Shown here in pieces: positions 4,179 through 50,649 of a stretch of DNA of 64,000 nt. Location of the stretch: positions 778 through 64,777 of the forward strand of contig JBJMGU010000120.1 of the NCBI GenBank assembly GCA_045807765.1. Direction: 5' to 3'. The DNA is from Blastocatellia bacterium (GTDB lineage Bacteria; Acidobacteriota; Blastocatellia; UBA7656). Under the pieces are notes generated by a model that saw nothing but the letters and a program-made list of their open reading frames with translations, was not told the DNA's origin and did no database searches. Every line of letters starts with the position of its first letter. The first letter of the stretch is position 1. A program made the translations under genes and the position numbers.

Positions 4179-4276
4179 GTATGGGCCAGTTACTCCTCCC
4201 CAAAGTTACTAATGCTAACACACGCCTTGCGGCGGACGGAAGTTCCTTTTTATCCGCTAATTCATGAGCCCTACGA

Positions 4277-4954
4277 TTATTCGATTGGCGGCTGAAGCTC
4301 TGGAACCGTAAGGCCGCGAGCGCGGCGTGATCGTAGGATGTTGAAGACAATCAGCAGGGTTGCAACAATGGCAACCGCCAGCAGGACTTTCAAGCCATGC
4401 CGCTTGATCTGTTCACCCGCTCCCTCGCCACCAAGCCAGATGGCCAGCAAGCCTTCGATTGAGAAGCGCACCAGGCGGCCCGCGAAGACGGCGATGATGA
4501 AGCGCGACAGCTTCAGCTTGAAGACGCCCGCCGACAGCACAAACGGCTTAAAGGGAAATGGCGGCGGCAGAATCGCTGTCGCCATGATGGCCAGCATATC
4601 ATAGCGCCCGAGCAGGTTTTCGATGCGGGCGCGCCGCGCCGGCTCGATCTTGCGGAGTGCCAGCATACCGGCGCGCCGCGCCACCCAGTACATGAATGTG
4701 CAGCCGATGGTCGAGCCGAGGCTCGCGGCGACAGCGTAAAGCGGCATCAGCGCATGGCTTCTGGCGCTCAACAGAATCATCACGGCATCCGGCCCGCCCG
4801 GCAGCGGCAAGCCCGCCGAATCGATCAGCGAGATGGCAAACAGGCCGAGCGGCCCCAGCGTCACCAGCCATTCGCCGAACGTTTGCAAGCTCTGTTTGAT
4901 CCCCAGCAGGTTAAAGAGAAGTTTGTTCATTCGTCCGTCTATCTCGAATCGCAA
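4277..4954 (-). CDS. DedA/YqaA-type (VTT domain) membrane protein
   Basis: Multi-TM protein with LGLFAISLIDSAGLPLPGGPDAVMILL, typical of the SNARE-associated/DedA family. Confidence 0.65.
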   Translation of the reverse strand: MRFEIDGRMNKLLFNLLGIKQSLQTFGEWLVTLGPLGLFAISLIDSAGLPLPGGPDAVMILLSARSHALMPLYAVAASLGSTIGCTFMYWVARRAGMLALRKIEPARRARIENLLGRYDMLAIMATAILPPPFPFKPFVLSAGVFKLKLSRFIIAVFAGRLVRFSIEGLLAIWLGGEGAGEQIKRHGLKVLLAVAIVATLLIVFNILRSRRARGLTVPELQPPIE

Positions 4955-9486: not shown

Positions 9487-12141
9487 CTACTCTGCCCGCA
9501 AGGTGATCGCCGGGTCAACGCGCGCCGCGCGCCACGCCGGCACCCAGCAAGCGACCGCCGATACGCTCGCCAGCAGCGCCATGACGCCGAGGTAGGTAAG
9601 CGGGTCGAGACGCGAGACGCCGAACAACAGCGACACCAGCGCCTGGCTGGCGGCCACCGCTCCGCTCACTCCGATGACCATGCCCAGCATGGTCATCGTC
9701 ATCCCCTGGCGAATCACCAGCGCCAGGATGTTGCCGCGGGTCGCGCCCAGCGCCAGCCGCACGCCGATCTCGCGCACGCGCTCGGTGACGCTGCCCGATA
9801 GCACACCGTAGATGCCCGTCGCTGCCAGCACCAGCGCCACGAGACCGAACGCTTCGAAGAGGGTCAGCGCGAAACGGCGCACGGCTGCCGATGCGGCAAG
9901 CAGGTCGTCCATCGTCGCGACTTTTACAATCGGCTGATCTTTATCCACAGACCAGATGGCTTTTCTGACGGCGGGCGCGAGCGCCGCCGCATCGCCGCGG
10001 GCGCGAACCACCAGCCACCGCGCCCTGTCTGCGAAAGGCTGCCACTGCGCGTTTGTAATGTAGACCGCATCCGTTTGATCGACCGCAAGCGATGTCTGTC
10101 TCACGTTGCCGACGACGCCGACGACCGTATTCCACGGTCCCGTGGTCGGGCCGATGCGCAACCGCTGGCCAATCGGGTCTTGATCGAGAAACTTGCTTTT
10201 CGCTAACGATTCGCTGATCAGCACCGCTGGCGGCGCCGCGGCGTTGTCGTGCTCGTCGAGCAAACGGCCACGGCGCAGCGGGATGGCCATAGCCTCGAAG
10301 TAGCCAGGGCTCACCGCATACCGCAAAGCGCCGTTATCGGCTTCGGAGCTACCCGTCGGGCTCGACTCGAAATGCACGCCATAGCCGTCTTCAAGATCGC
10401 CGCTCAGCGGCAACTGGCTGGTGAAAGCCGCCTCGGTAATACCGGGAAGCCGGCGCACTGCTTCCAGCGCCTGCGTGAAGAACAGATTGGTGGTTTCGTC
10501 GTTGAAGCGCTGTCCGGCGGCCTGCACTTGTATGGCGACCAGGTGCGACGTATCGAATCCGGGGGCAATCGCAAACAGACGTTGCATGCTGCGTAACAGC
10601 AGACCGGCGCCGACCAGCAGCACCAGCGCCAGCGCGACCTCGGCGACGACCAGCGTACGGCGCGTCAACTGATGCCCTCCTGTGCTGCGCCTTGAGCTTT
10701 GCTGCAAGCTGCCGTGCAGGTCGCTGCGCGAGGCGTCCAGCGCCGGAATCAACCCGACGACCAGCCCCATCACGGTAGTAATGCCGAAGGCGAAGGCGAA
10801 GACGCTGCCGTTGATGCCTATCGCGTCAGCGCGCGGCAGCCCCTGTGGACTGAGCGCCACCAATGCCTGTACGCCCATTACTGCCACCACCATGCCGAGC
10901 GCCCCGCCGATCACGGCAAGCAGCAAGCTCTCTGTGAGCAGTTGCCGCATCAATCTTTGGCGACCGGCACCGAGCGCGACGCGCACCGCGAATTCGCCGC
11001 GCCGCTGGGCGCCGCGAGCCAGCAGCAGATTGGTCACGTTCACGCAGGCAATCACCAGCACCAGCACAACCGCGCCAAGCACGGCGAGCAAGGCCGGTTT
11101 GACGCCGCCCGTGAGGTCGTCGTGCAGCGAATTCACCATCAAGCCATTACTGAGGTCGGCGTAGGGCGGCCTGGCGAATTCCGGCACAGGGTGTTGGGCG
11201 ATGGAATCAATCTCCTGGCGGGCTTGCTCGATGCCGACGCCCGGACGCAGCCGCCCGACCATGCGCAGGTGATGGCCCCACTCCCGGCTATCAGGTCGGA
11301 GCGTCGTGTCATACTGCAAGGGAGTCCAGACTTCCGCCGTGGGAGTCAGCAGATTCTCGAATGCCGCCGGCATCACGCCGATGACGGTATAGAGGTTGGC
11401 GTCGAGCGTGACTTGCTGGCCGACGATTGCGCGATCACCGCCGAAGCGCCGCCGCCACAGCTTATCGCCGAGAATGATCACGCGCGGGCCATTCAGTTGA
11501 TCGTCCGTCGCCTCGAAGTCTCTGCCCATCGCCGGCGTTACGCCGAGTGCGCGGAAGTACTCGGCGCTGACGCGCTGGCCATTGAATCGTTCAGGCTCGG
11601 TCGTGCCGGTCAAGGTCGGCTGCCAGGGCCGCATCACCGCCAGTTCATCAAACGAATGGCCGCGCTCGGCCAGCTCGCGATAGGTGCCGAAGGTGACGTA
11701 GAGGCGCGTGCCTTCGGCGCCGAAGTCCCAGAGCATTGCGATGCGGTCGGCTTGCGGATAGGGCAGCGGCTGAAACAGGATCGGATTGACGGCGCTGAAG
11801 ATCGCCGTACACGCGCCGATGCCGAGCGCCAGCGTCACGACCGCCACCGCCGTAAACCCCGGCGCTTTTCGCAGCATGCGCCGCGCATATCGCAGGTCTT
11901 TGAGCGTCGTTTCAATGAACGGCAGGCCGCGCCGGTCACGGTAGCGCTCTTTTACCTGCTCGACGCCGCCGAACTGGCGCAGGGCGGCGCGGCGCGCTTC
12001 GACGGGACTCATCCCGCGCCGCAGGTTCTCTTCGGTTTCCATCTCCAGATGCGCGCTGATCTCTTCGTCTAGCTCGCGCTCCAGCCGGCTCGTCAATAGC
12101 ACCGCCCGCAGACGGTGAAAGAAGATGCGCAGTCCGTTCAT
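9487..12141 (-). CDS. ADOP-family duplicated FtsX/MacB-type ABC permease
   Basis: 884 aa. Conserved ADOP N-terminus (FFHRLRAVLLTSRLERELDEEISAHLEME...RRAALRQFGGVEQVKE) and two MacB_PCD/FtsX modules. Confidence 0.85.
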   Translation of the reverse strand: MNGLRIFFHRLRAVLLTSRLERELDEEISAHLEMETEENLRRGMSPVEARRAALRQFGGVEQVKERYRDRRGLPFIETTLKDLRYARRMLRKAPGFTAVAVVTLALGIGACTAIFSAVNPILFQPLPYPQADRIAMLWDFGAEGTRLYVTFGTYRELAERGHSFDELAVMRPWQPTLTGTTEPERFNGQRVSAEYFRALGVTPAMGRDFEATDDQLNGPRVIILGDKLWRRRFGGDRAIVGQQVTLDANLYTVIGVMPAAFENLLTPTAEVWTPLQYDTTLRPDSREWGHHLRMVGRLRPGVGIEQARQEIDSIAQHPVPEFARPPYADLSNGLMVNSLHDDLTGGVKPALLAVLGAVVLVLVIACVNVTNLLLARGAQRRGEFAVRVALGAGRQRLMRQLLTESLLLAVIGGALGMVVAVMGVQALVALSPQGLPRADAIGINGSVFAFAFGITTVMGLVVGLIPALDASRSDLHGSLQQSSRRSTGGHQLTRRTLVVAEVALALVLLVGAGLLLRSMQRLFAIAPGFDTSHLVAIQVQAAGQRFNDETTNLFFTQALEAVRRLPGITEAAFTSQLPLSGDLEDGYGVHFESSPTGSSEADNGALRYAVSPGYFEAMAIPLRRGRLLDEHDNAAAPPAVLISESLAKSKFLDQDPIGQRLRIGPTTGPWNTVVGVVGNVRQTSLAVDQTDAVYITNAQWQPFADRARWLVVRARGDAAALAPAVRKAIWSVDKDQPIVKVATMDDLLAASAAVRRFALTLFEAFGLVALVLAATGIYGVLSGSVTERVREIGVRLALGATRGNILALVIRQGMTMTMLGMVIGVSGAVAASQALVSLLFGVSRLDPLTYLGVMALLASVSAVACWVPAWRAARVDPAITLRAE

Positions 12142-12144
12142 CGC

Positions 12145-12486
12145 TTAGCCCTCCGACGGCGCCAGGAACCGTTCGATAATGTCCGCCGCCCGCCGCCAGG
12201 TCTTCTCTTCTTCGGCAAGCTGTTTACGCCCGGCGCGGGTGATCGAGTAATACTTCGCCCGGCGGTTGTTGTCTGAAACGCCCCACTCAGTAGCGATCCA
12301 GCCCATCTGCTCCAATTGCAAGAGCGCCGGGTAGATCGTTCCCTGGTTGAGCTGCAAGAGGTCGCCGCTGGTCTGCTCGATGCGCCGGGCGATGCCATAG
12401 CCGTGCAGCGGCCCGAGGCTATCGAGCGTCTTCAGCACCATCAGGTTGAGGGTGCCCGGCAGAATGTCGTGCTTGTCCTGTCCCAT
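12145..12486 (-). CDS. PadR-family transcriptional regulator
   Basis: [28 protein letters not shown]...GTIYPALLQLEQMGW winged helix. ATG 12486 is preceded by AGGAGA. A 4-nt gap separates it from the downstream ADOP gene. Confidence 0.85.
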   Translation of the reverse strand: MGQDKHDILPGTLNLMVLKTLDSLGPLHGYGIARRIEQTSGDLLQLNQGTIYPALLQLEQMGWIATEWGVSDNNRRAKYYSITRAGRKQLAEEEKTWRRAADIIERFLAPSEG

Positions 12487-12501
12487 ATGTCTCCTGTTGA
12501 T

Positions 12502-12545
12502 AAGCAACACGAGTCTACACTATTTCCTGTAGGCAAGCAACACGA
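12502..12545 (-). promoter_or_regulatory. Candidate promoter/operator of PadR-ADOP operon 1 (direct repeats TCGTGTTGCTT x2)
   Basis: On the minus strand: TTGCTT, 17 nt, TAGACT. The 11-nt repeat occurs at 12502-12512 and 12535-12545, one copy over the -35 and one just downstream of the -10. Confidence 0.45.
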
Positions 12546-12581
12546 AAACGAAGGTCACGGCGAACGTCCGCCCGCCAAGCC

Positions 12582-12630
12582 TTGACATTCTAGGCATCCC
12601 TTTCTATGATGCTTTGGCATTCTAGGCATC
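12582..12630 (+). promoter_or_regulatory. Near-consensus sigma70 promoter plus direct-repeat operator of PadR-ADOP operon 2
   Basis: TTGACA (12582-12587), 17-nt spacer, TATGAT (12605-12610). The 13-nt repeat CATTCTAGGCATC occurs at 12586-12598 (over -35/spacer) and 12618-12630 (just after -10). Confidence 0.6.
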
Positions 12631-12655
12631 AACGAATCGGAGAGGAGAACGGCGA

Positions 12656-12988
12656 GTGACACAACAGAAGGCCGACCTGTTACAGGGCACACTCGACATG
12701 CTGATCCTGAAAGCTGTCAGCCTCGGGCCGCTGCACGGCTATGGCATCATCCAGCGCATCCGTCAGATGTCGGGCGAGATGCTCCACGTCGAGCAAGGCT
12801 CGCTCTACCCGGCGCTCTACCGCATCGAGCAGAAGGGCTGGGTCACTTCCGACTGGGACACGCACGAGACTGGTCGCCGCGCCAAGTTCTACAAGCTGAC
12901 GCGGGCCGGGCGCAAACAGCTCGAAGCCGAAGAGGCAAGCTGGGATCGTCTTGTGCTGGCCGTCACCAAAGTGCGGCAGGCCACCTGA
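12656..12988 (+). CDS. PadR-family transcriptional regulator
   Basis: [27 protein letters not shown]...[18 protein letters not shown] start with GGAGAGGAG upstream. Confidence 0.85.
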
Positions 12989-44168: not shown

Positions 44169-44431
44169 ATGTGGAAGCTTGGCACTTCATTATGCCGGCA
44201 GACCGGCTGGCCAAGAGTGCGGACTATCGCATCATCTGACCATAGGAGCCTTAATCACTGTTATAAGCGACTACCCGGAGCTTGTAAAACGAATTGTTTT
44301 TATAGTAACTATAACAAATTCTTTGGCTTGCCCTCTGACGGCTTCGACTTAGCTTATCTTCAGTCTCAGAGTTTTCAGAGGTTTCACGGTGTTCCTCGGT
44401 TGATCATCGCCCGCGCCAGGCGCACAGCGGG

Positions 44432-44986
44432 CTACGCCGTTTTATCGGCGCGGGCACTTTCCAGGAAGAGGTACTTTCTCCACTCCGGCCTTGATGTCGA
44501 CTCATGGCAGAGGATCGAACGGTCAATACCGTAAGTCAACGCCGCCGGGTTCTTCAGCAGCGGCATGCGCGACTCTTCCGGCGTGCGGTCGCCTTTTCGC
44601 TGATTGCACGCAAAGCATGAAGCCACCAGGTTATCGGCAGATGTCGAGCCGCCGCGAGACGCCGGCAGGATGTGATCGATAGTCAACTCGAACATGCCGC
44701 CGCGCTTGCCGCAGTACTGGCAGCAGAAATGGTCGCGCGCCAGAATCCGCGCGCGCTTGCTTGATGATTTGCGCTGCCTGCCGCGCACGTCGATGTATTC
44801 GATCAAACGAATGACTGACGGCTGCGGAAATTCAAAGCGCAGTGAGCGTAGCATGCGGTCGCCGTCTGCCTCGACCATCTCGGCTGACTCCTTCCAGATC
44901 AGACGCACCGCTCGCGGCACAGCAATCGTCCCCAGCGGTTCGTACGAAGCGTTCAACAGCAATACTTTTCGCGTCAGCAGATTCAT
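44432..44986 (-). CDS. HNH endonuclease (McrA/COG1403-like)
   Basis: CQYCGKRGG...LTIDHILPASRGGSTSADNLVASCFACNQRKGDR (HNH with two CxxC pairs). The ATG lies 7 nt after the encoded CCA of the last array tRNA. Confidence 0.85.
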   Translation of the reverse strand: MNLLTRKVLLLNASYEPLGTIAVPRAVRLIWKESAEMVEADGDRMLRSLRFEFPQPSVIRLIEYIDVRGRQRKSSSKRARILARDHFCCQYCGKRGGMFELTIDHILPASRGGSTSADNLVASCFACNQRKGDRTPEESRMPLLKNPAALTYGIDRSILCHESTSRPEWRKYLFLESARADKTA

Positions 44987-44993
44987 AACGTCC

Positions 44994-45070
44994 TGGAGCC
45001 GATGGAGAGAATTGAACTCACACTCTGCGACTTACGAGGCCGCCGCTTTATCCGTTTAAGCTACATCGGC
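44994..45070 (-). tRNA. tRNA-Thr(CGU), CCA encoded
   Basis: Hand fold: acceptor GCCGATG/CATCGGC, anticodon loop CTCGTAA, T-loop TTCAATT, 3' TCCA. Confidence 0.8.
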
Positions 45071-45073
45071 AAA

Positions 45074-45147
45074 TGCCCGATGGAGGAATCGAACCCCCGC
45101 ATGGCCACTTTGTAAGAGTGGTGCTTTCCCGTCTTAGCTAATCGGGC
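45074..45147 (-). tRNA. tRNA-Val(UAC)
   Basis: Acceptor GCCCGAT/ATCGGGC, anticodon loop CTTACAA, T arm GGGGG-TTCGATT-CCTCC. Confidence 0.8.
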
Positions 45148-45152
45148 AAAAG

Positions 45153-45225
45153 AGCGAGCGACGGGATTCGAACCCGCTCGGTCCAGCTTGGAAGGCTGGC
45201 GCTCATCCACTTGAGCTTCACTCGC
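45153..45225 (-). tRNA. tRNA-Gly(UCC)
   Basis: Acceptor GCGAGTG/CGCTCGC, U73, anticodon loop CTTCCAA, T-loop TTCGAAT. Position 8 is A. Confidence 0.8.
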
Positions 45226-45228
45226 CTG

Positions 45229-45301
45229 AGCCGATGACGGGCCTCGAACCCGCAGCCTGGGCATTACAAGTGCCCTGCACGTCCGCTTGTGCTTCATCGG
45301 C
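45229..45301 (-). tRNA. tRNA-Thr(UGU)
   Basis: Acceptor GCCGATG/CATCGGC (identical to Thr-CGU and Ile-GAU), anticodon loop CTTGTAA. Position 8 is A. Confidence 0.8.
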
Positions 45302-45304
45302 GAA

Positions 45305-45378
45305 TGGGGATAGGAAGAGTCGAACTCCCGGCCTCACCTTTCGGAGAGGTGCGCTCTCTCCGTCTGAGCTATATCCCC
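45305..45378 (-). tRNA. tRNA-Arg(CCG)
   Basis: Acceptor GGGGATA/TATCCCC, anticodon stem CACCT/AGGTG, loop CTCCGAA, T-loop TTCGACT. Confidence 0.8.
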
Positions 45379-45383
45379 GGAAC

Positions 45384-45455
45384 TTAGAATTGCAGCGGGC
45401 ACTTCAAGCAATACCGCTTGCCGTGCGCCTTACAGACTTTCTTATAACGATGCAT
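45384..45455 (-). CDS. 23-aa basic Cys/His microprotein embedded in the tRNA array
   Basis: MHRYKKVCKAHGKRYCLKCPLQF* (not in track). GGAGG at 45465-45469 lies 9 nt upstream of the ATG. It fills the only long (93-nt) spacer, between tRNA-Gln(UUG) and tRNA-Arg(CCG). Confidence 0.5.
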   Translation of the reverse strand: MHRYKKVCKAHGKRYCLKCPLQF

Positions 45456-45471
45456 GGCGATCTACCTCCGA

Positions 45472-45545
45472 CTGCGGGGGCGGGCAACGATTCCGCAACC
45501 TCCACTTTCAAAGAGTGGCGCTCTGCCTGCTTGAGCTACCCCGCA
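45472..45545 (-). tRNA. tRNA-Gln(UUG), irregular T arm
   Basis: Acceptor TGCGGGG/CCCCGCA (U1-A72) with G73, as in bacterial tRNA-Gln. Anticodon loop CTTTGAA. The T arm GCGGA-ATCGTTG-CCCGC lacks the canonical TTCGA loop and the G53-C61 pair. Confidence 0.65.
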
Positions 45546-45549
45546 TCAG

Positions 45550-45622
45550 TGGTTGGGGTGAGGGTCGAACTCACCGCCTCTGGTGCTTCAAACCAGCGCT
45601 CTTCCTGATGAGCTTCCCAACC
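45550..45622 (-). tRNA. tRNA-Phe(GAA)
   Basis: Acceptor GGTTGGG/CCCAACC, anticodon loop TTGAAGC (G37), T arm GTGAG-TTCGACC-CTCAC. Position 8 is A. Confidence 0.75.
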
Positions 45623-45626
45623 ATAA

Positions 45627-45699
45627 AGCTGCCGGCGAGACTCGAACTGGCGCGGATAGGTTCAGGAAACCTGCGCCTCATCCGCTCGGCCACGGCAGC
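45627..45699 (-). tRNA. tRNA-Arg(CCU)
   Basis: Acceptor GCTGCCG/CGGCAGC, anticodon loop TTCCTGA. D arm TGGCCGAGCGGATGAGGC resembles class II D arms. One T-stem mismatch. Confidence 0.7.
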
Positions 45700-45706
45700 A
45701 AAAAAA

Positions 45707-45784
45707 TGGTGGAGAGTATGGGGCTCGAACCCATCCATCGAGTTTGCAGGACTCGCATGCCGCCAACAACACCTTGCCGACCGA
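45707..45784 (-). pseudogene. Degenerate/chimeric tRNA-like unit (Ala-UGC-like 3' half with CCA)
   Basis: Canonical 3' part: T arm ATGGG-TTCGAGC-CCCAT, then ACTCTCC-A-CCA. Anticodon arm CGAGT-CCTGCAA-ACTCG. The 5' end (GGTCGGCAAGGTG...) cannot pair with the 3' acceptor strand. Confidence 0.5.
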
Positions 45785-45857
45785 TGGGCCGCGTGGGAGT
45801 CGAACCCACTACCACCCGATTAAAAGTCGGGTACTCATCCTGATGAGCTTGCGGCCC
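45785..45857 (-). tRNA. tRNA-Lys(UUU)
   Basis: Acceptor GGGCCGC/GCGGCCC, anticodon stem CCCGA/TCGGG, loop CTTTTAA, T arm GTGGG-TTCGACT-CCCAC. Position 8 is A. Confidence 0.8.
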
Positions 45858-45858
45858 G

Positions 45859-45949
45859 TACTCCCGCCGGGACTCGAACCCGGATCACGCACCAATCTAG
45901 TGCTTGCAGGGTATAAGCCTGCTGTTTTATCCAATTAAACTACGGGAGC
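45859..45949 (-). tRNA. Class II (long variable arm) tRNA with anticodon UAU
   Basis: Acceptor GCTCCCG/CGGGAGT, A73. Anticodon stem GCAGG/CCTGC with loop CTTATAC. 22-nt variable arm AAGCACTAGATTGGTGCGTGAT (stem GCAC/GTGC). T arm CCGGG-TTCGAGT-CCCGG. Confidence 0.7.
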
Positions 45950-45953
45950 GCGA

Positions 45954-46025
45954 TGAGCCCGACAGGAATCGAACCTGCTTTTCCGGTTTAAGAGACCGGC
46001 ACTTCGCCAGCAAAGCTTCAGGCCC
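45954..46025 (-). tRNA. tRNA-Lys(CUU)
   Basis: Acceptor GGGCCTG/CGGGCTC (two G-U pairs), anticodon stem CCGGT/ACCGG, loop CTCTTAA. Position 8 is A. Confidence 0.75.
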
Positions 46026-46028
46026 AAA

Positions 46029-46103
46029 TGCTCCCGGCAGGACTCGAACCCGCATCGCCAACCTTAGAAGGGTTGTGCCTTAATCCAGTTAGACCACAGG
46101 AGC
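46029..46103 (-). tRNA. tRNA-Arg(UCU)
   Basis: Acceptor GCTCCTG/CGGGAGC, anticodon stem CAACC/GGTTG, loop CTTCTAA, T-loop TTCGAGT. Confidence 0.8.
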
Positions 46104-46108
46104 AAAAG

Positions 46109-46182
46109 CGAGGTGTAGGGGAGTCGAACCCCTCTCTTCACGATAGACAATCGTGCGCCTCAAGCCGCTCGGCCAACACCTC
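46109..46182 (-). tRNA. tRNA-Asp(GUC)
   Basis: Acceptor GAGGTGT/ACACCTC, G73, anticodon stem CACGA/TCGTG, loop TTGTCTA (pyrimidine at 37). D arm TGGCCGAGCGGCTTGAGGC. Confidence 0.7.
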
Positions 46183-46186
46183 GAAA

Positions 46187-46259
46187 TGCCGATGTCAGGA
46201 TTCGAACCTGCATCGCGCGGTTATCAACCGCGTGCTCTGCCTGCTTGAGCTACATCGGC
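46187..46259 (-). tRNA. tRNA-Ile(GAU)
   Basis: Acceptor GCCGATG/CATCGGC, anticodon stem CGCGG/CCGCG, loop TTGATAA. D arm GCTCAAGCAGGCAGAGC is identical to that of Gln(UUG). Confidence 0.75.
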
Positions 46260-46260
46260 A

Positions 46261-46337
46261 TGGCTCCGGGACAAGGATTTGAACCTTGAATCTCCTGAGT
46301 CAGAGTCAGGCGCGATAGCCAGTTTCGCCCTCCCGGA
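46261..46337 (-). tRNA. tRNA-Gln(CUG), CCA encoded
   Basis: Acceptor TCCGGGA/TCCCGGA (U1-A72), G73-CCA, anticodon loop CTCTGAC, T arm CAAGG-TTCAAAT-CCTTG. Position 8 is G. Confidence 0.75.
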
Positions 46338-46342
46338 ACACG

Positions 46343-46417
46343 TACGGGCGGTTGGAGTCGAACCAACGATCTCCTGATCCACAATCAGGCGCTCTTGACC
46401 ATCTGAGCTACGCCCGC
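46343..46417 (-). tRNA. tRNA-His(GUG), without encoded G-1:C73
   Basis: Acceptor GCGGGCG/CGCCCGT, anticodon loop TTGTGGA, T arm GTTGG-TTCGACT-CCAAC. Position 73 is A and the base 5' of G1 is U. Confidence 0.75.
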
Positions 46418-46422
46418 ACAAG

Positions 46423-46495
46423 CAGGGATGGCGAGACTCGAACTCGCTAAAACTGGTTTGAAAAACCAGGCGCTCGGCCCTTTGCATTCATCCCC
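46423..46495 (-). tRNA. tRNA-Glu(UUC)
   Basis: Acceptor GGGGATG/CATCCCT, G73, anticodon stem CTGGT/ACCAG, loop TTTTCAA. The D loop contains AGGGCC as in Glu tRNAs. Position 8 is A. Confidence 0.75.
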
Positions 46496-46515
46496 ATTAA
46501 AGCCAAAGATCACCA

Positions 46516-46589
46516 TGCGCGAGGGGAGAGTCGAACTCCCAAGACTTCGGGTTTAAGCCGAAGATGTCTGCCGCTTGCATCACTCGCGC
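46516..46589 (-). tRNA. tRNA with Leu anticodon UAA but class I (short variable loop) architecture
   Basis: Acceptor GCGCGAG/CTCGCGC, A73, anticodon stem TTCGG/CCGAA, loop CTTAAAC, 5-nt variable loop. D arm TGATGCAAGCGGCAGACATC. Confidence 0.7.
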
Positions 46590-46594
46590 AAGAT

Positions 46595-46670
46595 TGGTGG
46601 CAGGGCCGGAGTCGCACCGGTGATTTCCTGGTTATGAGCCAGGCGAGCCTGATTCCTGCTCCACCCCTGC
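46595..46670 (-). tRNA. tRNA-Met(CAU)-like, CCA encoded, irregular T arm/acceptor register
   Basis: D arm GAGC/GCTC, anticodon stem CCTGG/CCAGG, loop CTCATAA. T-loop TGCGACT (G at 55). The acceptor pairs only as GCAGGG/CCCTGC, consistent with a 1-nt loss. Confidence 0.55.
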
Positions 46671-46675
46671 ATCAG

Positions 46676-46748
46676 AGCGCGCGGTCAGACTCGAACTGAC
46701 ACGTTAGCGGTTTTGCAGACCGCCGCCTTCCCTTTTGGCTACGCGCGC
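46676..46748 (-). tRNA. tRNA-Cys(GCA)
   Basis: Acceptor GCGCGCG/CGCGCGC, U73, anticodon stem GCGGT/ACCGC, loop CTGCAAA, T arm GTCAG-TTCGAGT-CTGAC. Confidence 0.8.
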
Positions 46749-46754
46749 GAAAAG

Positions 46755-46825
46755 AGCTTCGTATGGGACTCGAACCCATGTCTGCGACCTGGCAAGCCGC
46801 CGTCTTTCCTCTGGACCAACGAAGC
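46755..46825 (-). tRNA. tRNA-Gly(GCC)
   Basis: Acceptor GCTTCGT/ACGAAGC, U73, anticodon loop TTGCCAG, T arm ATGGG-TTCGAGT-CCCAT. Confidence 0.8.
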
Positions 46826-46829
46826 CGTA

Positions 46830-46903
46830 TGGGAGCAAAGAGATTCGAACTCTTATGACCGGCATTTTGAGCGCCGGATGTCTACCACTTGCATCATGCT
46901 CCC
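46830..46903 (-). tRNA. tRNA with Leu anticodon CAA, class I architecture
   Basis: Acceptor GGGAGCA/TGCTCCC, A73, anticodon loop CTCAAAA, 5-nt variable loop. D arm TGATGCAAGTGGTAGACATC. Confidence 0.7.
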
Positions 46904-46907
46904 GCAG

Positions 46908-46981
46908 TGCGGACGGAGAGATTCGAACTCTCAAAACGTCGCCTCTGAAACGACGATGTCTGCCGCTTGCATCACGTCCGC
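46908..46981 (-). tRNA. tRNA with Leu anticodon CAG, class I architecture
   Basis: Acceptor GCGGACG/CGTCCGC, A73, anticodon loop TTCAGAG, 5-nt variable loop. D arm TGATGCAAGCGGCAGACATC. Confidence 0.7.
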
Positions 46982-47077
46982 AGCAGTGTGGGCGACCGGA
47001 GTCGAACCCACAACGGATTGGTTACCGCTACTTGTTTTCAAGACAAGCTGACATTCCAGCATCTACTCTTCCACGAA
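46982..47077 (-). pseudogene. Degenerate class II tRNA-Ser(UGA)-like unit
   Basis: Good anticodon arm CTTGT-CTTGAAA-ACAAG and variable arm AGCGG/CCGTT. The T region reads GTGGG-TTCGACT-CCGGTCG-CCCAC (7 extra nt). The 5' GGAAGAG has no complementary 3' strand. Confidence 0.45.
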
Positions 47078-47161
47078 CGGAGATGAGAGGAGTCGAACCT
47101 CCACGGGATATTTCACCCGGCGGCTTAGCAAACCGCTGCCATACCTTTAGGCGACATCTCC
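47078..47161 (-). tRNA. tRNA-Ser(GCU), class II
   Basis: Acceptor GGAGATG/CATCTCC, G73, anticodon loop TTGCTAA, long variable arm CGGGTGAAATATCCCGT, T arm GGAGG-TTCGACT-CCTCT. Confidence 0.8.
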
Positions 47162-47167
47162 ACAAGG

Positions 47168-47237
47168 CAGGAGTGACAGGAATCGAACCTGTTCTGCTGG
47201 TTTTGGAGACCAGTTGGCTGCCTTAGCTCTCACTCCC
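47168..47237 (-). tRNA. tRNA-Trp(CCA), irregular D region
   Basis: Acceptor GGGAGTG/CACTCCT (G1-U72), G73, anticodon stem CTGGT/ACCAG, loop CTCCAAA, T arm ACAGG-TTCGATT-CCTGT. The D stem is only 3 bp (GCT/AGC) with extra linker nucleotides. Confidence 0.65.
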
Positions 47238-47242
47238 AAGCA

Positions 47243-47328
47243 TGCCGGCGGGAGGACTCGAACCTCCGAAGTCCACAAAGGGACGCCTGTTCTACAGACA
47301 GGAGCGATTGCCGCTACGCGACGCCGGC
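47243..47328 (-). tRNA. tRNA-Tyr(GUA), class II (first gene of array)
   Basis: Acceptor GCCGGCG/CGCCGGC, A73, anticodon stem CCTGT/ACAGG, loop CTGTAGA, long variable arm with GTCC/GGAC stem, T arm GGAGG-TTCGAGT-CCTCC. Confidence 0.8.
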
Positions 47329-47880
47329 GTACGGACAACTTATTGTCAAAGAGCGCAGCATGGCGGCTTCAGCCATCGGCCATCGCTCCTTGATCTCTAG
47401 CTTTTGTGGATTGCTTGGGATTTCGGGAGCGAGAGGACGCTCCCGCTACGATTAGTTCAGACTACCCAAATCTATAAAGCGCCCTTGCAGGACGACCGTC
47501 GATTCGAGCATCCGATTAGACGTATAGACACACGTCGGCTGGTTCGCCGTGCGTGGGTGCCATTTTGTGGATAACCGTCTAATCATTTGAACTACCTTAA
47601 CCTCGTAGCCAGTTTGCCGGAAGCTAAATCCGGCACCGCTCATTGTAGGCCATACGGCAGACCAGATCAATAAGTTCTTCTCACTTCACTTTTTTTTCGT
47701 TTGCGACTGCCAATCCCAGCGCGATGCCGATCAACGCCATGCGAATCCCCTGTTGCACTACCAGAGTCCGACCCGTCGGCTCAACTTTGCAAGCCGGTCG
47801 GACGCGTAGTAAATTGTTGTCGTCTTGCGGCCCCGAAAGTTGACCGTCTTTTAAATTCATTTGTGAAGGAAAAACGCGTT

Positions 47881-48912
47881 ATGAATCTCTGCCACCAACA
47901 CCGTCTTTTCATACTTACGGTTGCGCTATTCATCTTTTCATTCCCCGCCCTTGCCGCGCAGACCAAGAGCAAGCCGCCCGCGAACACCAATGCCGCCAGA
48001 TCACAGTCGAAGCCCGCTGCAAAGCCGAAGCGCGAAACGGCGGAAGCGAAGCGCGAGGCGGCTGAGGCAAAAGCCAAAGCGGCGCGCGCCGGCGTAACCC
48101 TGTTCGTCGTGGCGCAAGACCGCGGCGGCAGCCACATCGAGCCGCTCGTCGGCATCATCGAAGGGCGTTACCTTGAGCCGCCCTCTGCCGAGTCTGAACA
48201 ATTCTCGGCCTTCGCGGCGCGCTACTATCACGTCGGCCAGAGATACCGCCTGCTGTTCGGTGGCGGCGATGCCGGCACGGCAACCGTCAGGGCCAAGCCT
48301 GATAAAGACAGCGACTGCGCTCGCGCCCTGGCCAGCGTCGAGTTGCAGACCGCCGCACGCATCAACGGCCTGGTGATGGGGCTGGCGACAAACTCAGAAA
48401 CGCTGGGCCGGCGCGCCGCAACGCGCCGTTTCCCTACCCCTGCCGAGCGCACGGCGGCCAATGATCTGGCCGGGCGCATCTTTCGCCAGAAGGGCGCTGC
48501 CGCCGCCGCCGTGCAAGACATGAAGACGATTAACATGACGGCGGCCGACCTGAACGGCGACGGCAAGTGGGAGATCATTGCCAGCTTCATCGTCCGCACG
48601 CAATCGCGCAATGAAGCCGTCCATCATCTCTTTCTCATTGCCGCGCCTGACGCCGATGGCTTTGACATAGACCTGATGCGCTATGCCCGCACGGCGAAAG
48701 GCGACCTGCCCGAAGGCGCCAGCCTCGACGATGTGCAGGAAGCGTTATTGAGCGAAGTGCTGGTTGATCACGTTGATCTGGATAGCGATAAGATGAGCGA
48801 AGTCGTCACCATGACGACCAACTTCGAGGGCGCGACCTACAAGATTTATCACAAGCAGAAGAATCGCTGGGCGAACATCTACGAATACTACAGCTACCGC
48901 TGTGCCTATTGA
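47881..48912 (+). CDS. Secreted hypothetical protein with Lys/Ala-rich linker and FG-GAP-like motif
   Basis: The probable start MNLCHQHRLFILTVALFIFSFPALAAQ is a signal peptide. AKPKRETAEAKREAAEAKAKAA low-complexity segment. DLNGDGKWEIIA motif. Confidence 0.5.
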   Translation: MNLCHQHRLFILTVALFIFSFPALAAQTKSKPPANTNAARSQSKPAAKPKRETAEAKREAAEAKAKAARAGVTLFVVAQDRGGSHIEPLVGIIEGRYLEPPSAESEQFSAFAARYYHVGQRYRLLFGGGDAGTATVRAKPDKDSDCARALASVELQTAARINGLVMGLATNSETLGRRAATRRFPTPAERTAANDLAGRIFRQKGAAAAAVQDMKTINMTAADLNGDGKWEIIASFIVRTQSRNEAVHHLFLIAAPDADGFDIDLMRYARTAKGDLPEGASLDDVQEALLSEVLVDHVDLDSDKMSEVVTMTTNFEGATYKIYHKQKNRWANIYEYYSYRCAY

Positions 48913-48954: not shown

Positions 48955-50649
48955 TCAAATATCAAAGCCGCCGAGGCGTCCGCCGCTCTTGGGCTGCGGC
49001 TTGACCAGCACGGCGCGCTCCTCGTCGCGGCGTGCGCGGCTCTGCTCGCTGTGCCAGCGCGCCCACTCCAGCGGCGCATCGATGGTTTCGCCGCCGTGGC
49101 GCGTCAGCCGCTTGCGCACCTGACACATCACCGGCGTATTGATCGCCACGCCTGACACGATCAACTGCCCCTTGGTCAGCGCCGGCAATTCATCAAGCAT
49201 GCGTCGGCCTGCGCCTTCGACCGTTTTAGCAATGGTGTCCTGATCTATTGGGTTGACGATGCGCATGATGAACTGCGTCATGCATTGCGACAGCACATCG
49301 GCGTCGAGCTTGCCCGGTCGCTGAGTAATCAGGCCGACGCCGACGCCGAATTTGCGCCCTTCGGAAAGAATCTGCTTTAACACATTCGTAGACACGACCG
49401 TTTGTCCGGCGGGCGCGAAGCGGTGCGCTTCTTCGAGCAGAACGAACATCGGGAACGGCAGGTATCGCTCGTTGGTTGGGTCGGTGACTTCGCCCTTATG
49501 CGTCGCCATGCGGCCCAGGATCGCCCGCCGCAAAAGCGTCGCGACGATTACCTGCTGCTCGTTCTGCTCGATGTCTACGAGTTGCAGCACGGTACATTGA
49601 CCGGGCTGAAACAGCTCGGTGAGCAGGTTATGTTCGTGGTCGGAAAAAATCTGATGCTTGCTGTAGCCGCGAAAGCGCCCTTCGAGCCGCCACGTCAGCC
49701 CGTCAATCGTGCTGATGTTGCCGGCGCGGTTGCCTTCGTCGTCGCCATAACGCTGCTCTTCGACGGCGTCGAGCAAGTCCTGATAGATGTAGTGGCCGTG
49801 CTTGCCGGCGCGCTCGCGCATGGTGCGAAAGGCGTTGCCGAGAAAGTGGCGCATCTTGTCGGTCATCTCCGGCAGCAGGTAGCAGATGTCGGCGAACTCC
49901 AAGGTGTCGAATCTGACTTTCACCTTTTCGGGCCGCAGAATCTTAACCTCCGGCGTATAGCCGTCGGCGGTGAATTGAGTGCGAAACTTTTCGCCTTTGA
50001 TCTCCTGTAACGTATCATACTCGCCGTGCGGGTCAACGATCAGCACCGCCGAGCGGTTCTGTGGGCGCATCAGCTCTTCGATCAGCACAGACGCCGTGTA
50101 GCTTTTGCCCGCGCCGGTCGAAGCCAGCACCGCCAGATGTGTCGATACGACATCCTTCACAGACAGGACCACCGGGACGTCGCCGGCTTCGCGGGTCAGC
50201 AGACTGCCGACGTGCGCCGCGCCACGCTCGCCCGGCTGCTTCGGCGACAACACGCGCGCCAACAATTCAGAGGGCGCAAGGTAGACAGGTTGGCCGGGCA
50301 TTGGCGGGATGCGCGGGTTGACGAAGTCTTTCAGCTCGTCGTCATAGTAACCAATCAACGAGACAACGATCTCGAACAGCTCGGCGCTGTCGTCGTCAAA
50401 GCCGATCATCGCGGCGACCGCCGCCGGCGGCGTTTCGGGATCGGCAAGAAAGCTGTCCGGCAGCGAGCGCGCCAGCCGTCGCTCGGTGACATTGCCAAGA
50501 ATGCGGCGCTCGCTGCGGGCCGCATCGCGCACGTAGTAGACGAACTCGCCGACGCGCGTGTGGTCGTTGTCTGTGGTGATGAAGACAAACTCGCTGGGCT
50601 TTTCGCCCGGCCCCTTGACTGTGCCTACCAGTGTGTCGGACATTTCCAT
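48955..50649 (-). CDS. HerA-like (DUF87) hexameric ATPase/helicase
   Basis: N-terminal HAS-barrel-like GTVKG...EFVFITTDNDHTRVGEFVYYV. Walker A VLASTGAGKSYT. Walker B MFVLLEEAHRFAP. Confidence 0.75.
   Translation of the reverse strand: MEMSDTLVGTVKGPGEKPSEFVFITTDNDHTRVGEFVYYVRDAARSERRILGNVTERRLARSLPDSFLADPETPPAAVAAMIGFDDDSAELFEIVVSLIGYYDDELKDFVNPRIPPMPGQPVYLAPSELLARVLSPKQPGERGAAHVGSLLTREAGDVPVVLSVKDVVSTHLAVLASTGAGKSYTASVLIEELMRPQNRSAVLIVDPHGEYDTLQEIKGEKFRTQFTADGYTPEVKILRPEKVKVRFDTLEFADICYLLPEMTDKMRHFLGNAFRTMRERAGKHGHYIYQDLLDAVEEQRYGDDEGNRAGNISTIDGLTWRLEGRFRGYSKHQIFSDHEHNLLTELFQPGQCTVLQLVDIEQNEQQVIVATLLRRAILGRMATHKGEVTDPTNERYLPFPMFVLLEEAHRFAPAGQTVVSTNVLKQILSEGRKFGVGVGLITQRPGKLDADVLSQCMTQFIMRIVNPIDQDTIAKTVEGAGRRMLDELPALTKGQLIVSGVAINTPVMCQVRKRLTRHGGETIDAPLEWARWHSEQSRARRDEERAVLVKPQPKSGGRLGGFDI

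Follow-up and report, generated by a model that had tools for sequence, protein, structure and literature searches.

A tRNA array followed by an HNH gene

We analysed a stretch of 64,000 nucleotides (nt) from a Blastocatellia bacterium (contig JBJMGU010000120.1), referred to below as the window, in which a dense array of tRNA genes occupies positions 44994-47328 on the minus strand (2,335 bp) and is followed by a gene for an HNH endonuclease. ARAGORN called 26 tRNA genes, all on the minus strand and all within these limits, and none in the rest of the 64 kb. The Rfam tRNA model reached its gathering score with 24 units in a search of the whole window and with 25 in a search of the region only. 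One of the units it recognized, Glu(UUC) at 46423-46495 (42 bits), had been missed by ARAGORN, and the two programs combined gave 27 tRNAs, or 28 units with a broken Ala-like unit. The units (25 solid, two marginal and one degenerate) score between 21 and 70 bits in Rfam and are packed at about 12 per kb. They are given here in the order of transcription, together with the nuclease gene.

44994..47328, minus strand: tRNA array, 28 units from Tyr(GUA) to Thr(CGU); ARAGORN, Rfam
47243..47328, minus strand: tRNA-Tyr(GUA), 86 nt, long variable arm; ARAGORN, Rfam 52.5 bits
47168..47237, minus strand: tRNA-Trp(CCA); ARAGORN, Rfam 39.2 bits
47078..47161, minus strand: tRNA-Ser(GCU), long variable arm; ARAGORN, Rfam 53.5 bits
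46988..47074, minus strand: Ser(UGA)-like unit, aberrant, acceptor and T stems mismatched; ARAGORN, missed by the Rfam tRNA model
46908..46981, minus strand: tRNA-Leu(CAG), 74 nt, without long variable arm, A73; ARAGORN, Rfam 40.2 bits
46830..46903, minus strand: tRNA-Leu(CAA), 74 nt, without long variable arm, A73; ARAGORN, Rfam 43.6 bits
46755..46825, minus strand: tRNA-Gly(GCC); ARAGORN, Rfam 54.9 bits
46676..46748, minus strand: tRNA-Cys(GCA); ARAGORN, Rfam 60 bits
46599..46670, minus strand: Met(CAU) unit, marginal, acceptor stem imperfect; ARAGORN, Rfam 28.5 bits against a cut-off of 29
46516..46589, minus strand: tRNA-Leu(UAA), 74 nt, without long variable arm, A73; ARAGORN, Rfam 43.9 bits
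46423..46495, minus strand: tRNA-Glu(UUC); Rfam only, 42 bits
46343..46417, minus strand: tRNA-His(GUG); ARAGORN, Rfam 69.9 bits
46264..46337, minus strand: tRNA-Gln(CUG), CCA encoded; ARAGORN, Rfam 59.3 bits
46187..46259, minus strand: tRNA-Ile(GAU); ARAGORN, Rfam 61.4 bits
46109..46182, minus strand: tRNA-Asp(GUC); ARAGORN, Rfam 50.6 bits
46029..46103, minus strand: tRNA-Arg(UCU); ARAGORN, Rfam 54 bits
45954..46025, minus strand: tRNA-Lys(CUU); ARAGORN, Rfam 52.7 bits
45859..45949, minus strand: UAU tRNA, 91 nt, long variable arm, A73; Rfam 61.2 bits
45785..45857, minus strand: tRNA-Lys(UUU); ARAGORN, Rfam 57.6 bits
45710..45778, minus strand: Ala(UGC)-like unit, degenerate, acceptor stem broken, ACCA end; Rfam 21.3 bits, E = 0.43
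45627..45699, minus strand: tRNA-Arg(CCU); ARAGORN, Rfam 41.4 bits
45550..45622, minus strand: tRNA-Phe(GAA); ARAGORN, Rfam 57.1 bits
45472..45545, minus strand: tRNA-Gln(UUG); ARAGORN, Rfam 49.3 bits
45379..45471, minus strand: 93-nt spacer with GGAGG, then a 23-codon open reading frame (ORF; 45455-45384), MHRYKKVCKAHGKRYCLKCPLQF and stop
45305..45378, minus strand: tRNA-Arg(CCG); ARAGORN, Rfam 64.3 bits
45229..45301, minus strand: tRNA-Thr(UGU); ARAGORN, Rfam 52.5 bits
45153..45225, minus strand: tRNA-Gly(UCC); ARAGORN, Rfam 54.6 bits
45074..45147, minus strand: tRNA-Val(UAC); ARAGORN, Rfam 58.8 bits
44994..45070, minus strand: tRNA-Thr(CGU), CCA encoded, final array unit; ARAGORN, Rfam 63.6 bits
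44432..44986, minus strand: HNH endonuclease gene, 184 aa; Pfam HNH_5 and HNH, E = 1e-15

The initial annotation, made from the sequence without database searches, had described 26 cloverleaves and two degenerate units on the minus strand. ARAGORN and Rfam confirmed these 28 units, and the list of anticodons given for them proved right in both order and content. Most units also passed the covariance model, 25 of them reaching the Rfam tRNA cut-off. The spacers had been put at 1-7 nt, except for one of 20 nt and one of 93 nt; both exceptions stand, and with the Rfam boundaries the range is 1-10 nt. Of four units thought to encode CCA, three do so clearly (Gln(CUG), the Ala-like unit and Thr(CGU)), and the fourth, Met, is ambiguous. 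The acceptor stem GCCGATG is indeed common to Thr(CGU), Thr(UGU) and Ile(GAU), and a 20-nt D arm is identical in Gln(UUG) and Ile(GAU) (repeat family D13), both as previously noticed. The order of the units is non-repetitive. The array spans 17 amino acids, if the marginal Met unit is included, and both programs agreed with the earlier observation that Asn and Pro are absent and that Ala is represented by a broken copy only. Four features had been missed: the HNH gene, the leader upstream of the array, the Leu units without a long variable arm and the UAU unit with one.

The best Rfam match of the Ser(UGA)-like unit was tRNA-Sec, with 30.4 bits against a cut-off of 47. In the His(GUG) unit, G-1 is not encoded (position -1 is T), and the unit has G1-U72 and A73; the absence of G-1 together with A73 is known from a group of alphaproteobacteria and from some phage His tRNAs (Mukai et al., PMC5389517). 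Gene-order comparison placed the degenerate Ala-like unit at the site of the Asn-Pro-Ala block of relatives. Compared with the closest relatives, loci L004 (90% identity of the HNH protein) and L003 (79%), the window has lost a Thr(GGU)-Met-Asn-Pro block, and its Ala unit is broken. This copy of the array is somewhat eroded: the Asn-Pro-Ala block is gone, one unit is broken and two are marginal. The 23-codon ORF in the 93-nt spacer is rich in Cys and His (CxxH...CxxC pattern), and the spacer showed no likeness to any tRNA or to any other locus. We rejected the possibility that it is a decayed tRNA-Arg(UCG), because its tRNA likeness was no better than that of shuffled sequences, and the possibility that the ORF is a conserved array component, because a counterpart was found in none of the 301 intra-array gaps of relatives.

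A tRNA array unit has been defined as at least 20 tRNA genes at a density of at least 2 per kb (Tran et al. 2016, PMC4758250), and L-arrays are long arrays of supernumerary tRNAs that spread horizontally (Santamaria-Gomez et al. 2021, PMC8421152). The array in the window exceeds both thresholds of the former, by gene number (26 with ARAGORN, 25 with Rfam) and by density. As in L-arrays, it has one orientation, a spacing compatible with co-transcription, no periodicity and one promoter-like site upstream, and it is linked to an HNH gene; linkage to an HNH homing-endonuclease gene is a frequent but not strictly defining feature of L-arrays. On the grounds of density, layout and the homologous array-linked HNH gene, the locus is a tRNA array unit with most L-array features.

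The ATG of the HNH gene lies 7 nt past the last array tRNA, Thr(CGU), on the same strand. Over 153 aa, N-terminal domain included, its product shares 32% identity (E = 7e-24) with all8564 from the trn operon of Anabaena; with the HNH protein encoded within the 29-tRNA array of the Mycolicibacterium plasmid pCBMA213_1 it shares 40%. The protein has more than 1,800 database relatives, of which the closest with a source name are from Blastocatellia, and in this class homologues with 51-90% identity follow arrays. Sequence searches placed only the HNH domain, with nucleases of IscB, Cas9 and group II introns as the nearest ones; the AlphaFold model has a mean predicted local distance difference test (pLDDT) score of 58.5, with values below 50 for the N-terminal domain. 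The best plasmid match (43.7% identity) is on Acaryochloris marina pREB6 (L001, 65449-81925): there, no tRNA was found within 8 kb, and the gene adjoins a plasmid-borne methionyl-tRNA synthetase gene and a YlxR-family gene.

Gene order and distribution among relatives

For comparison, one genome per species was scanned, resulting in 80 loci with an HNH identity of 51-90%. Nearly all of them are labelled Blastocatellia, Pyrinomonadaceae, Chloracidobacterium or Acidobacteriota, and some Clostridia or Heliobacteriaceae. At least 10 same-strand tRNA genes lie next to the HNH gene at 51 of the 80 loci (median 28, maximum 40) and 3-7 at two; at 15 loci there are none or one despite at least 3 kb of upstream sequence, and 12 loci are too truncated to judge. 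The arrays contain about 20 to 40 units and share one order: Tyr-Trp-Ser-Ser-(Arg)-Leu..-Gly-Cys-Met-Leu-Glu-His-Gln-Ile-Asp in the first half and Arg-Lys-UAU(long)-Lys-..-Asn-Pro-Ala-..-Phe-Gln-Arg-Thr-Gly-Val-Thr in the second, followed by the HNH gene. The comparison proposed in the initial annotation thus found the array at 51 species loci and its absence at 15, a patchy distribution of the kind that characterizes L-arrays. Even in a synteny group that shares HNH-tRNA-Val(GAC)-thrS and the genes downstream, the array is present upstream of the HNH gene in some species and absent in others. Its prevalence in the class is nevertheless far above the "sprinkled" pattern described for other phyla. 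A survey from 2021 placed Acidobacteria with the phyla that have short accretive arrays only and no L-arrays (PMC8421152), and our literature search found no paper describing arrays in Blastocatellia. One new finding is a class-wide Blastocatellia array of conserved order that ends at an HNH gene.

Some loci deviate from this layout. Three reduced ones (L072, L075 and L079) consist of a leader, 1-3 tRNAs and the HNH gene. In a subgroup of arrays, a conserved small ORF of about 77 aa (M.LRT..RMTSRKL.DLE.ELKPLL...) with a Shine-Dalgarno sequence lies between tRNA genes (L046 3443-3679, L047 930-1166, L051 6441-6671 and L053 6314-6544), and another one of about 71 aa (MK.GARFRIVDL...), likewise with a Shine-Dalgarno sequence, is found between tRNA genes in L005 (7014-7229) and L013 (8314-8529).

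The array could, in principle, be the housekeeping tRNA operon of the organism, with the main or only copies of these genes: 25 units reach the Rfam cut-off and most are well-formed, 17 amino acids are covered if the marginal Met unit is included, conservation of the family extends across the class, and the 64-kb window has no other tRNA gene. We consider this very improbable. Since the array lacks Asn, Pro and a functional Ala unit, other tRNA genes must exist elsewhere; many anticodons are missing as well, the unit content differs widely between species, and in 15 related species the HNH gene occurs with no array. Stand-alone genes for Val(GAC), Val(UAC), Asp(GUC) and Gly(CCC) lie beside arrays of relatives (in L026, Val(UAC) and Asp(GUC) alongside array copies of both) and score higher, with 67-74 Rfam bits against a median near 60 (range 33-77) for array tRNAs. 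In 11 array-bearing species, the stand-alone Val(GAC) genes have a mean pairwise identity of 95%, compared with 85% for the in-array Val(UAC) of the same species, and in L032 and L036 the identity between the in-array Val(GAC) and the stand-alone Val(GAC) of the same locus amounts to only 65-67%; array tRNAs thus appear to evolve faster than the stand-alone Val(GAC). The Leu units without a variable arm and the His unit without G-1 would also be unusual in a housekeeping set. The sequence comparison supports an accessory array, and the earlier statement that this is "not the housekeeping set" is upheld by the Asn/Pro/Ala gap, the 15 array-less species, the presence and absence at the same site and the divergent Val(GAC) duplicates.

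The initial annotation had also called the array probably horizontally acquired. In this form it was not supported: the array family, its order and its leader are common to 51 of the 80 loci down to an HNH identity of 51%, and no mobile-element flanks were found. Because so many species loci share these traits, they point to old residence with relocation and loss and not to recent acquisition; the family looks old within the class, where it seems to have been repeatedly relocated and lost. In the window, the array is flanked by ordinary chromosomal genes, which encode a BadF/BadG-family ATPase, a sodium:solute symporter (SSF), a NamZ/beta-lactamase fusion and a TonB-type outer-membrane protein, as well as a hypothetical protein, a HerA-like ATPase and an imidazolonepropionase. 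Within about 10 kb on each side there is no integrase or phage gene, and no att-like flanking repeats were detected, the only repeats being tRNA-internal ones and a weak 21-nt pair inside ORFs; the marks of a prophage or integrative element (integrase, structural genes and att repeats) are missing from this interval. A tblastn search with the flanking proteins of the window against 83 loci (80 of them from the species scan) revealed no shared neighbours, even at 90% HNH identity, and the borders of the insertion can therefore not be defined by synteny.

These flanks also bear on the idea that the module is cargo of phages or mobile elements, its tRNAs countering tRNA-cleaving toxins and anticodon nucleases and the HNH protein acting as a homing endonuclease that moves it. 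Several observations fit this idea. In Tunturi_5 (L088, PP885688.1 234157-246663), a 308-kb jumbo phage of the acidobacterium Tunturiibacter, tRNA-Thr(CGU) is immediately followed, just like in the window, by the gene of an HNH homologue (38.7% identity); this gene belongs to a cluster of 15 tRNAs and lies beside genes for RtcB, RimK-type S6 modification and the CCA-adding enzyme; in Synechococcus phage S-CBWM1, a homologue is found inside the tRNA cluster. A 54-kb contig that IMG/VR lists as viral (L086, UViG 3300005617_000340) carries the same array type, the module occurs in different genomic contexts even at 90% HNH identity, and mycobacterial arrays have been discussed as anti-defence systems (PMC12803027). 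We still regard the cargo explanation as improbable, given the ordinary flanks without integrase, phage genes or att-like repeats, the mostly vertical-looking distribution within the class and the absence of phage hallmark genes from the 16.5 kb of the IMG/VR contig that were examined. Common descent with the Tunturi_5 cluster was rejected because there is no specific tRNA similarity: any pairing of a window tRNA with a phage tRNA gives an identity of about 0.6. Exchange of the array between phage and chromosome is possible. As a separate observation, the gene neighbourhood in Tunturi_5 echoes the TrcR regulon of Anabaena.

The arrays of relatives are accompanied by further genes of RNA metabolism. 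RtcB and RtcA genes are located directly upstream of the array at seven loci, an RtcB gene is within the array at two, and a gene for an RNA ligase is embedded in five arrays. The array of the IMG/VR contig has an embedded 190-aa PrfH-like ORF (RF-1 and PCRF domains) and, within or beside the array, a Ro60-vWA protein (4070-4642 and 11112-12692). In one group of loci, a Ro60-like vWA protein is encoded past the HNH gene, after 1-3 odd tRNA-like units of 71-73 nt; it belongs to ORF family F26, whose homologue in the IMG/VR contig matches the Ro60 vWA domain. RtcB, RtcA, RNA ligase, Ro60-like and PrfH-like proteins are RNA repair and ribosome rescue functions, and their presence parallels the linkage of rtcB to arrays in cyanobacteria. 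The back-up role under stress that the initial annotation had proposed is supported only by this context and, by analogy, by the homology to all8564.

The odd tRNA-like units after the HNH gene (L030 11390-11462, L031 11724-12099 and L034 11810-12209, each with the F26 ORF just downstream) include, for example, a 73-nt Ser(UGA) unit and a "stop" unit with the anticodon UUA. Together with the Ro60-like gene they may form a quality-control pair of the Y-RNA/Ro type. The array of the IMG/VR contig also holds a DUF5662 protein gene and a second HNH gene. In the window, the HerA-like ATPase (48955-50649, minus strand; Pfam DUF87, PADLOC HerA models down to E = 3e-44) is stand-alone and encoded two genes upstream of the array promoter, with no recognisable nuclease partner adjacent; the 403-aa protein encoded next to it (47701-48912) matched no family.

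The leader upstream of the first tRNA gene

Alignment of the sequence upstream of the first tRNA gene revealed 44 sites in relatives that correspond to the window leader, giving a sample of 45 loci. In the window, the leader has the following parts.

47642..47670, minus strand: sigma-70-like promoter, TTGATC-17 nt-TACAAT, with an A-rich tract upstream; consensus match only
47452..47586, minus strand: leader ORF, 44 codons and TAA, MIRRLSTKWHPRTANQPTCVYTSNRMLESTVVLQGRFIDLGSLN; conceptual translation
47425..47446, minus strand: hairpin 1 (segments 1 and 2), GCGGGAGCG-TCCTCT-CGCTCCC; alignment and fold
47394..47424, minus strand: linker with middle helix (AAAUC.. with ..GAU), bringing segment 2 close to segment 3
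47346..47393, minus strand: hairpin 2 (segments 3 and 4), terminator-like, base GGAGCG/CGCUC, then CUCUUUGACAA; fold

The putative promoter is the only promoter-like site in 44300-47900. Comparable sites (TTGACA or TTGTAA, a spacer of 17 or 18 nt, and GATAAT or TATAGT) precede the leader ATG of relatives by 55-85 nt, and an A tract is often found upstream of them. The leader ORF of the window is intact, with a start codon, a Shine-Dalgarno-like sequence and a stop codon. In all 45 loci, the frame that ends at the conserved stop is open over at least 44 codons without a single stop, whereas the other two frames contain 118 and 126 stops and are open in only six and three loci. The ORF has 42-96 codons and starts at a good Shine-Dalgarno sequence and ATG, often ATGATG. 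The stop codon itself varies (TGA in 19, TAA in 13 and TAG in 13 loci) and is never replaced by a sense codon, and its distance to the hairpin 1 motif is 6-8 nt in 45 of 45 loci (7 nt in 37); in the window, the motif begins 8 nt after the first base of the stop codon. Substitutions are spread over the three codon positions in the ratio 415:476:494, with no excess at the third position, and 732 of the codon differences are non-synonymous versus 242 synonymous. These statistics rule out a conserved protein, and no match was found in Pfam or NCBIfam. Because the substitutions are even across codon positions, selection appears to act on the frame but not on the peptide, as is typical of a regulatory leader ORF: the leader would be translated, with an unconstrained peptide sequence.

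Hairpin 1 has the consensus GGGAGCGG-N4-8-CCGCTCCC and a predicted energy of -13 to -19 kcal/mol. It is near-invariant in 36 aligned loci, its eight pairs showing one compensatory change (GC to AU) in three loci. About 35 nt past hairpin 1, (A)GGAGCGG appears again and forms the 5' side of the base of the variable hairpin 2, which closes with CCGCTC(C). In most of the 45 loci, the equivalents of hairpin 2 have -16 to -42 kcal/mol and a T-rich tract 70-100 nt after hairpin 1, and the first tRNA gene follows 20-100 nt past hairpin 2. Between the two hairpins, the sides of the middle helix (AAAUCUC with GAGAUUU) covary across subfamilies, UCUC/GAGA in some and AUCC/GGAU in others. As MAFFT lost the register of this helix, we tested it by duplex energies: sides paired with their own partner averaged -5.4 kcal/mol, cross-type pairs -2.5 kcal/mol and shuffled sequences -2.5 ± 1.9 kcal/mol. 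In the window, pairing in this helix is weak and irregular. The sequence of segment 1 returns in segment 3, and its complement is found in both segment 2 and segment 4, so that segment 2 can pair with either of its neighbours; for a nascent RNA ending just after segment 3, the fold prediction gave pairing of segments 2 and 3, lengthened by the middle helix. Taken as a pattern of sequence conservation, this layout looks like a leader-peptide attenuator.

An ordinary, fast-evolving small-protein gene, with the hairpins as its stabiliser and terminator, would account for part of this pattern; the array would then be transcribed separately or by leak-through, without any switch. The ORF is long for a leader peptide, residues recur in it (MMLKGQN at the N-terminus and F-x-D-Y near the C-terminus), hairpin 2 with its T tract resembles a plain intrinsic terminator, and hairpin 1 is almost without covariation. 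Such a gene is rather unlikely in view of the missing third-position bias, the fixed distance between stop codon and hairpin, and the sequence shared by segments 1 and 3 and by segments 2 and 4. Separate transcription of the array would also need a promoter, and no promoter-like site was found between hairpin 2 and tRNA-Tyr, a distance of only 20-30 nt in many loci and too short for one; a TTGACAA after hairpin 2 was rejected as a -35 box because only 21-26 nt are left before tRNA-Tyr. Moreover, in three arrays (L046, L047 and L053) the ORF end and hairpin 1 are present once more within the array, just before the Lys(UUU)/UAU block.

Coming back to the attenuator, several points weigh against it or limit it. 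The window has a weak T tract past hairpin 2 (CUCUUUGAC). Hairpin 2 is far more stable than the pairing of segments 2 and 3, and because of this difference antitermination would have to be kinetic. RNAalifold, applied to the full leader alignment of 232 columns, recovered only hairpin 1, which is so invariant, with near-zero covariation, that it could equally be a protein-binding site. The search in Rfam found no family matching the leader. In the arrays of Pyrinomonadaceae (L064, L069, L077, L081 and L083), the interval from the leader terminator to the first tRNA gene contains a further conserved element (..TAGGAGAAGTGTGCGCCGNAGTGTGTC..), about 60-150 nt upstream of tRNA-Tyr.

Unusual tRNAs, a proposed mode of action and known systems

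The three Leu units of the window are 74 nt long and have a variable region of 4 nt, in contrast to canonical class II tRNA-Leu with its long variable arm and about 85 nt; the Leu-like D arm and A73 are retained. Such Leu units of less than 80 nt are common in the arrays of Blastocatellia (119 of 146), and the remaining 27 have a long arm, sometimes at orthologous positions. The four Leu units of the Anabaena trn operon (L085 1554-2090, pCC7120delta) are only 75-78 nt long, and the Leu genes in the tRNA cluster of S-CBWM1 (L089 8155-8911) have 74-81 nt; in the literature on these two we found no comment on the short Leu tRNAs. Leucyl-tRNA synthetase (LeuRS) of E. coli is not known to depend on the variable arm of the tRNA. 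By analogy, and for this reason, the arm-less Leu units may still accept Leu.

The UAU unit, in turn, has a long variable arm, with a stem of 4-5 bp and a loop of 5-7 nt, beyond the 10 nt that a class II stem-loop has at least. The acceptor, T and D stems of the unit comprise 7, 5 and 4 bp, respectively, and the 9-nt D loop contains GG. The unit was found in nearly all arrays. In 36 orthologues, 98.9% of the alignment cells were paired and 18 of 25 pairs showed compensatory changes, including three of the four pairs of the variable-arm stem (one of them AU in 18 and GC in 17 sequences). None of 500 shuffles was as good, and slid controls were paired to 34-45%. The variable-arm loop CAGAUYA is conserved. 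In the window, the acceptor and T arms of this unit are like those of the Arg(UCU) unit. One subgroup has a second long-arm unit with the anticodon GAU or AAU, or with an 8-nt anticodon loop, directly upstream of the UAU unit (L042 7890-7981, L055 7820-7911, L058 7287-7378, L063 452-544, L033 8061-8152 and L032 8132-8224); the long-arm type therefore serves more than one Ile-box anticodon. The allo-tRNA(UAU) of Acidobacteria (PMC5389517) shares with the array unit the long variable arm, the UAU anticodon, the acidobacterial origin and the place among irregular tRNAs. Allo-tRNAs have 8/4 or 9/3 acceptor/T stems and a D arm like that of tRNA-Sec, whereas the array unit has 7/5 stems and GG in the D loop, which rules out an allo-tRNA; unlike an allo-tRNA, it has a cloverleaf backed by covariation and reaches 61 bits with the general tRNA model. 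Judged by their recurrence among the aligned loci, the arm-less Leu units and the long UAU unit appear to be traits of the family and not signs of local decay.

We conclude that the array is a genuine, mostly intact accessory L-array with an HNH partner, which in Blastocatellia is class-wide and probably distinct in its regulation. For the window, we think it probable that promoter, leader ORF, two hairpins, about 28 tRNA genes and the HNH gene form a single minus-strand operon, an L-array that would add a second, non-housekeeping tRNA set under attenuator-type control by its leader. Transcription would begin at the sigma-70-like promoter near 47642-47670, and the 44-codon leader would be translated, the position of its stop, but not the peptide sequence, being what matters. 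With a ribosome at or close to the stop codon, segment 1 would be masked and segment 2 (CCGCUCC) free to pair with segment 3 (GGAGCGG), and hairpin 2 would not form. Read-through into the tRNA genes would depend on the state of the ribosome on the leader, although the direction of the response cannot be deduced from the sequence. RNase P and a 3' processing enzyme would cut the long transcript, CCA would be added post-transcriptionally to nearly all tRNAs, and these would supplement or replace damaged or limiting housekeeping tRNAs. The HNH nuclease, whose gene would be co-transcribed and is a conserved companion of such arrays in three phyla as well as in phages, may help the module to spread or to be retained. 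The role as spare tRNAs in translational stress is suggested by homology and gene context, and the attenuator by conservation patterns. A more far-reaching picture, in which the operon is a class-wide spare tRNA set controlled by a translation-sensing attenuator of a new type, with selected arm-less Leu tRNAs (shared with the Anabaena array) and a long-arm tRNA reading AUA, is put forward tentatively, with less than even confidence.

The unit loss in the window copy fits relaxed selection, which weakens the interpretation as a working operon, as does the lack of RNA-repair genes in the flanks. The functional link between the HNH protein and tRNAs amounts to an association only, since the gene also occurs without arrays and, in Gordonia phages, beside the terminase gene. 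The window array might be a decaying, essentially silent relic of a once-working ancestral array, with its lost Thr(GGU)-Met-Asn-Pro block and broken Ala unit, its marginal Met and Ser(UGA) units, the unexplained 93-nt insert, a hairpin 1 and hairpin 2 T tract that depart from the consensus, and flanks without RNA-repair genes. This is, however, unlikely: 25 units have good cloverleaves, the leader ORF and the HNH ORF are intact, the latter being 90% identical to that of the closest relative, and a promoter-like site is present.

The purpose of long tRNA arrays has been settled in one organism only, Anabaena. Among the Blastocatellia species sampled with an HNH gene, about two-thirds have an array, and the class is an abundant soil group; the shared order and the RNA-repair neighbours make these loci a large natural comparative set on the purpose of spare tRNA sets. 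If the attenuator is true, tRNA operons would have a mode of control so far undescribed for them, by which the cell would read the state of its own ribosomes to decide on a second tRNA set. The arm-less Leu and long UAU tRNAs bear on substrate recognition by LeuRS, isoleucyl-tRNA synthetase (IleRS) or another synthetase, and on whether arrays cause controlled mistranslation under stress. Finally, the conservation of the HNH gene as the last gene of the operon questions its usual reading as a selfish homing nuclease.

The leader can be compared with the trp, his and pyrBI attenuators, in which a translated leader ORF precedes four segments that pair either as 1:2 and 3:4 or as 2:3. The array leader resembles them in the succession of a short, probably translated ORF, segments predicted to allow these alternative pairings and a terminator-like hairpin with a U tract, and here too ORF and stop position are kept and the peptide seems free to vary. 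It differs in an ORF of 42-96 codons, in the lack of a run of regulatory codons, in a stop before segment 1 and in the genes that it would regulate, which are tRNAs and not biosynthetic enzymes. The phage clusters of Tunturi_5 and S-CBWM1 resemble the window in the combination of an HNH homologue with tRNAs; unlike the window, they stand in a phage setting, and their tRNAs are not specifically related to those of the array. In the segB region of T4 (PMC2330249), the nuclease SegB is of the GIY-YIG family, whereas that of the window is of the HNH type.

Mycobacterial tRNA array units (PMC5966550, PMC12803027) have 26-32 tRNAs and one conserved embedded HNH gene of the same family (40% identity), the anticodons of these arrays are redundant with chromosomal tRNAs, and the arrays are found at different genomic sites; in M. 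avium, the redundant arrays, likewise at different sites, always have one embedded HNH gene (PMC12803027). In contrast to the window array, they are located on plasmids, giant linear plasmids or phages, are more loosely spaced and interspersed with protein genes, have Leu tRNAs of 85 nt with a long arm and another gene order, and no such leader has been described for them.

A further parallel comes from the trn operon on plasmid delta of Anabaena (Nostoc sp. PCC 7120). This L-array of 26 genes is silent during normal growth and induced by ribosome-targeting antibiotics, charging in vivo was shown for 23 of the 26 tRNAs, and the HNH gene all8564 and rtcB are regulated together with the array (PMC8421152); its repressor is the RHH protein TrcR (PMC10272220). 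Like the window array, it is long, tightly spaced and on one strand (24 ARAGORN calls, L085), most of its units have no encoded CCA, its Leu units are only 75-78 nt long, and the HNH proteins are homologous. Related cyanobacterial arrays are linked to rtcB, as are arrays of Blastocatellia, and the sub-blocks Thr(UGU)-Gly(UCC)-Val(UAC) and Arg(ACG)-Phe(GAA) are common to both. The Anabaena array differs in being on a plasmid and not on the chromosome, in its overall order and in having no long-arm UAU tRNA. Its HNH gene is upstream and separately transcribed, whereas in the window it is the last gene of the operon. Control, finally, is exerted in Anabaena by TrcR binding to direct repeats in the promoter; no such repeats were seen in the window, where a translated leader with hairpins would take this place.

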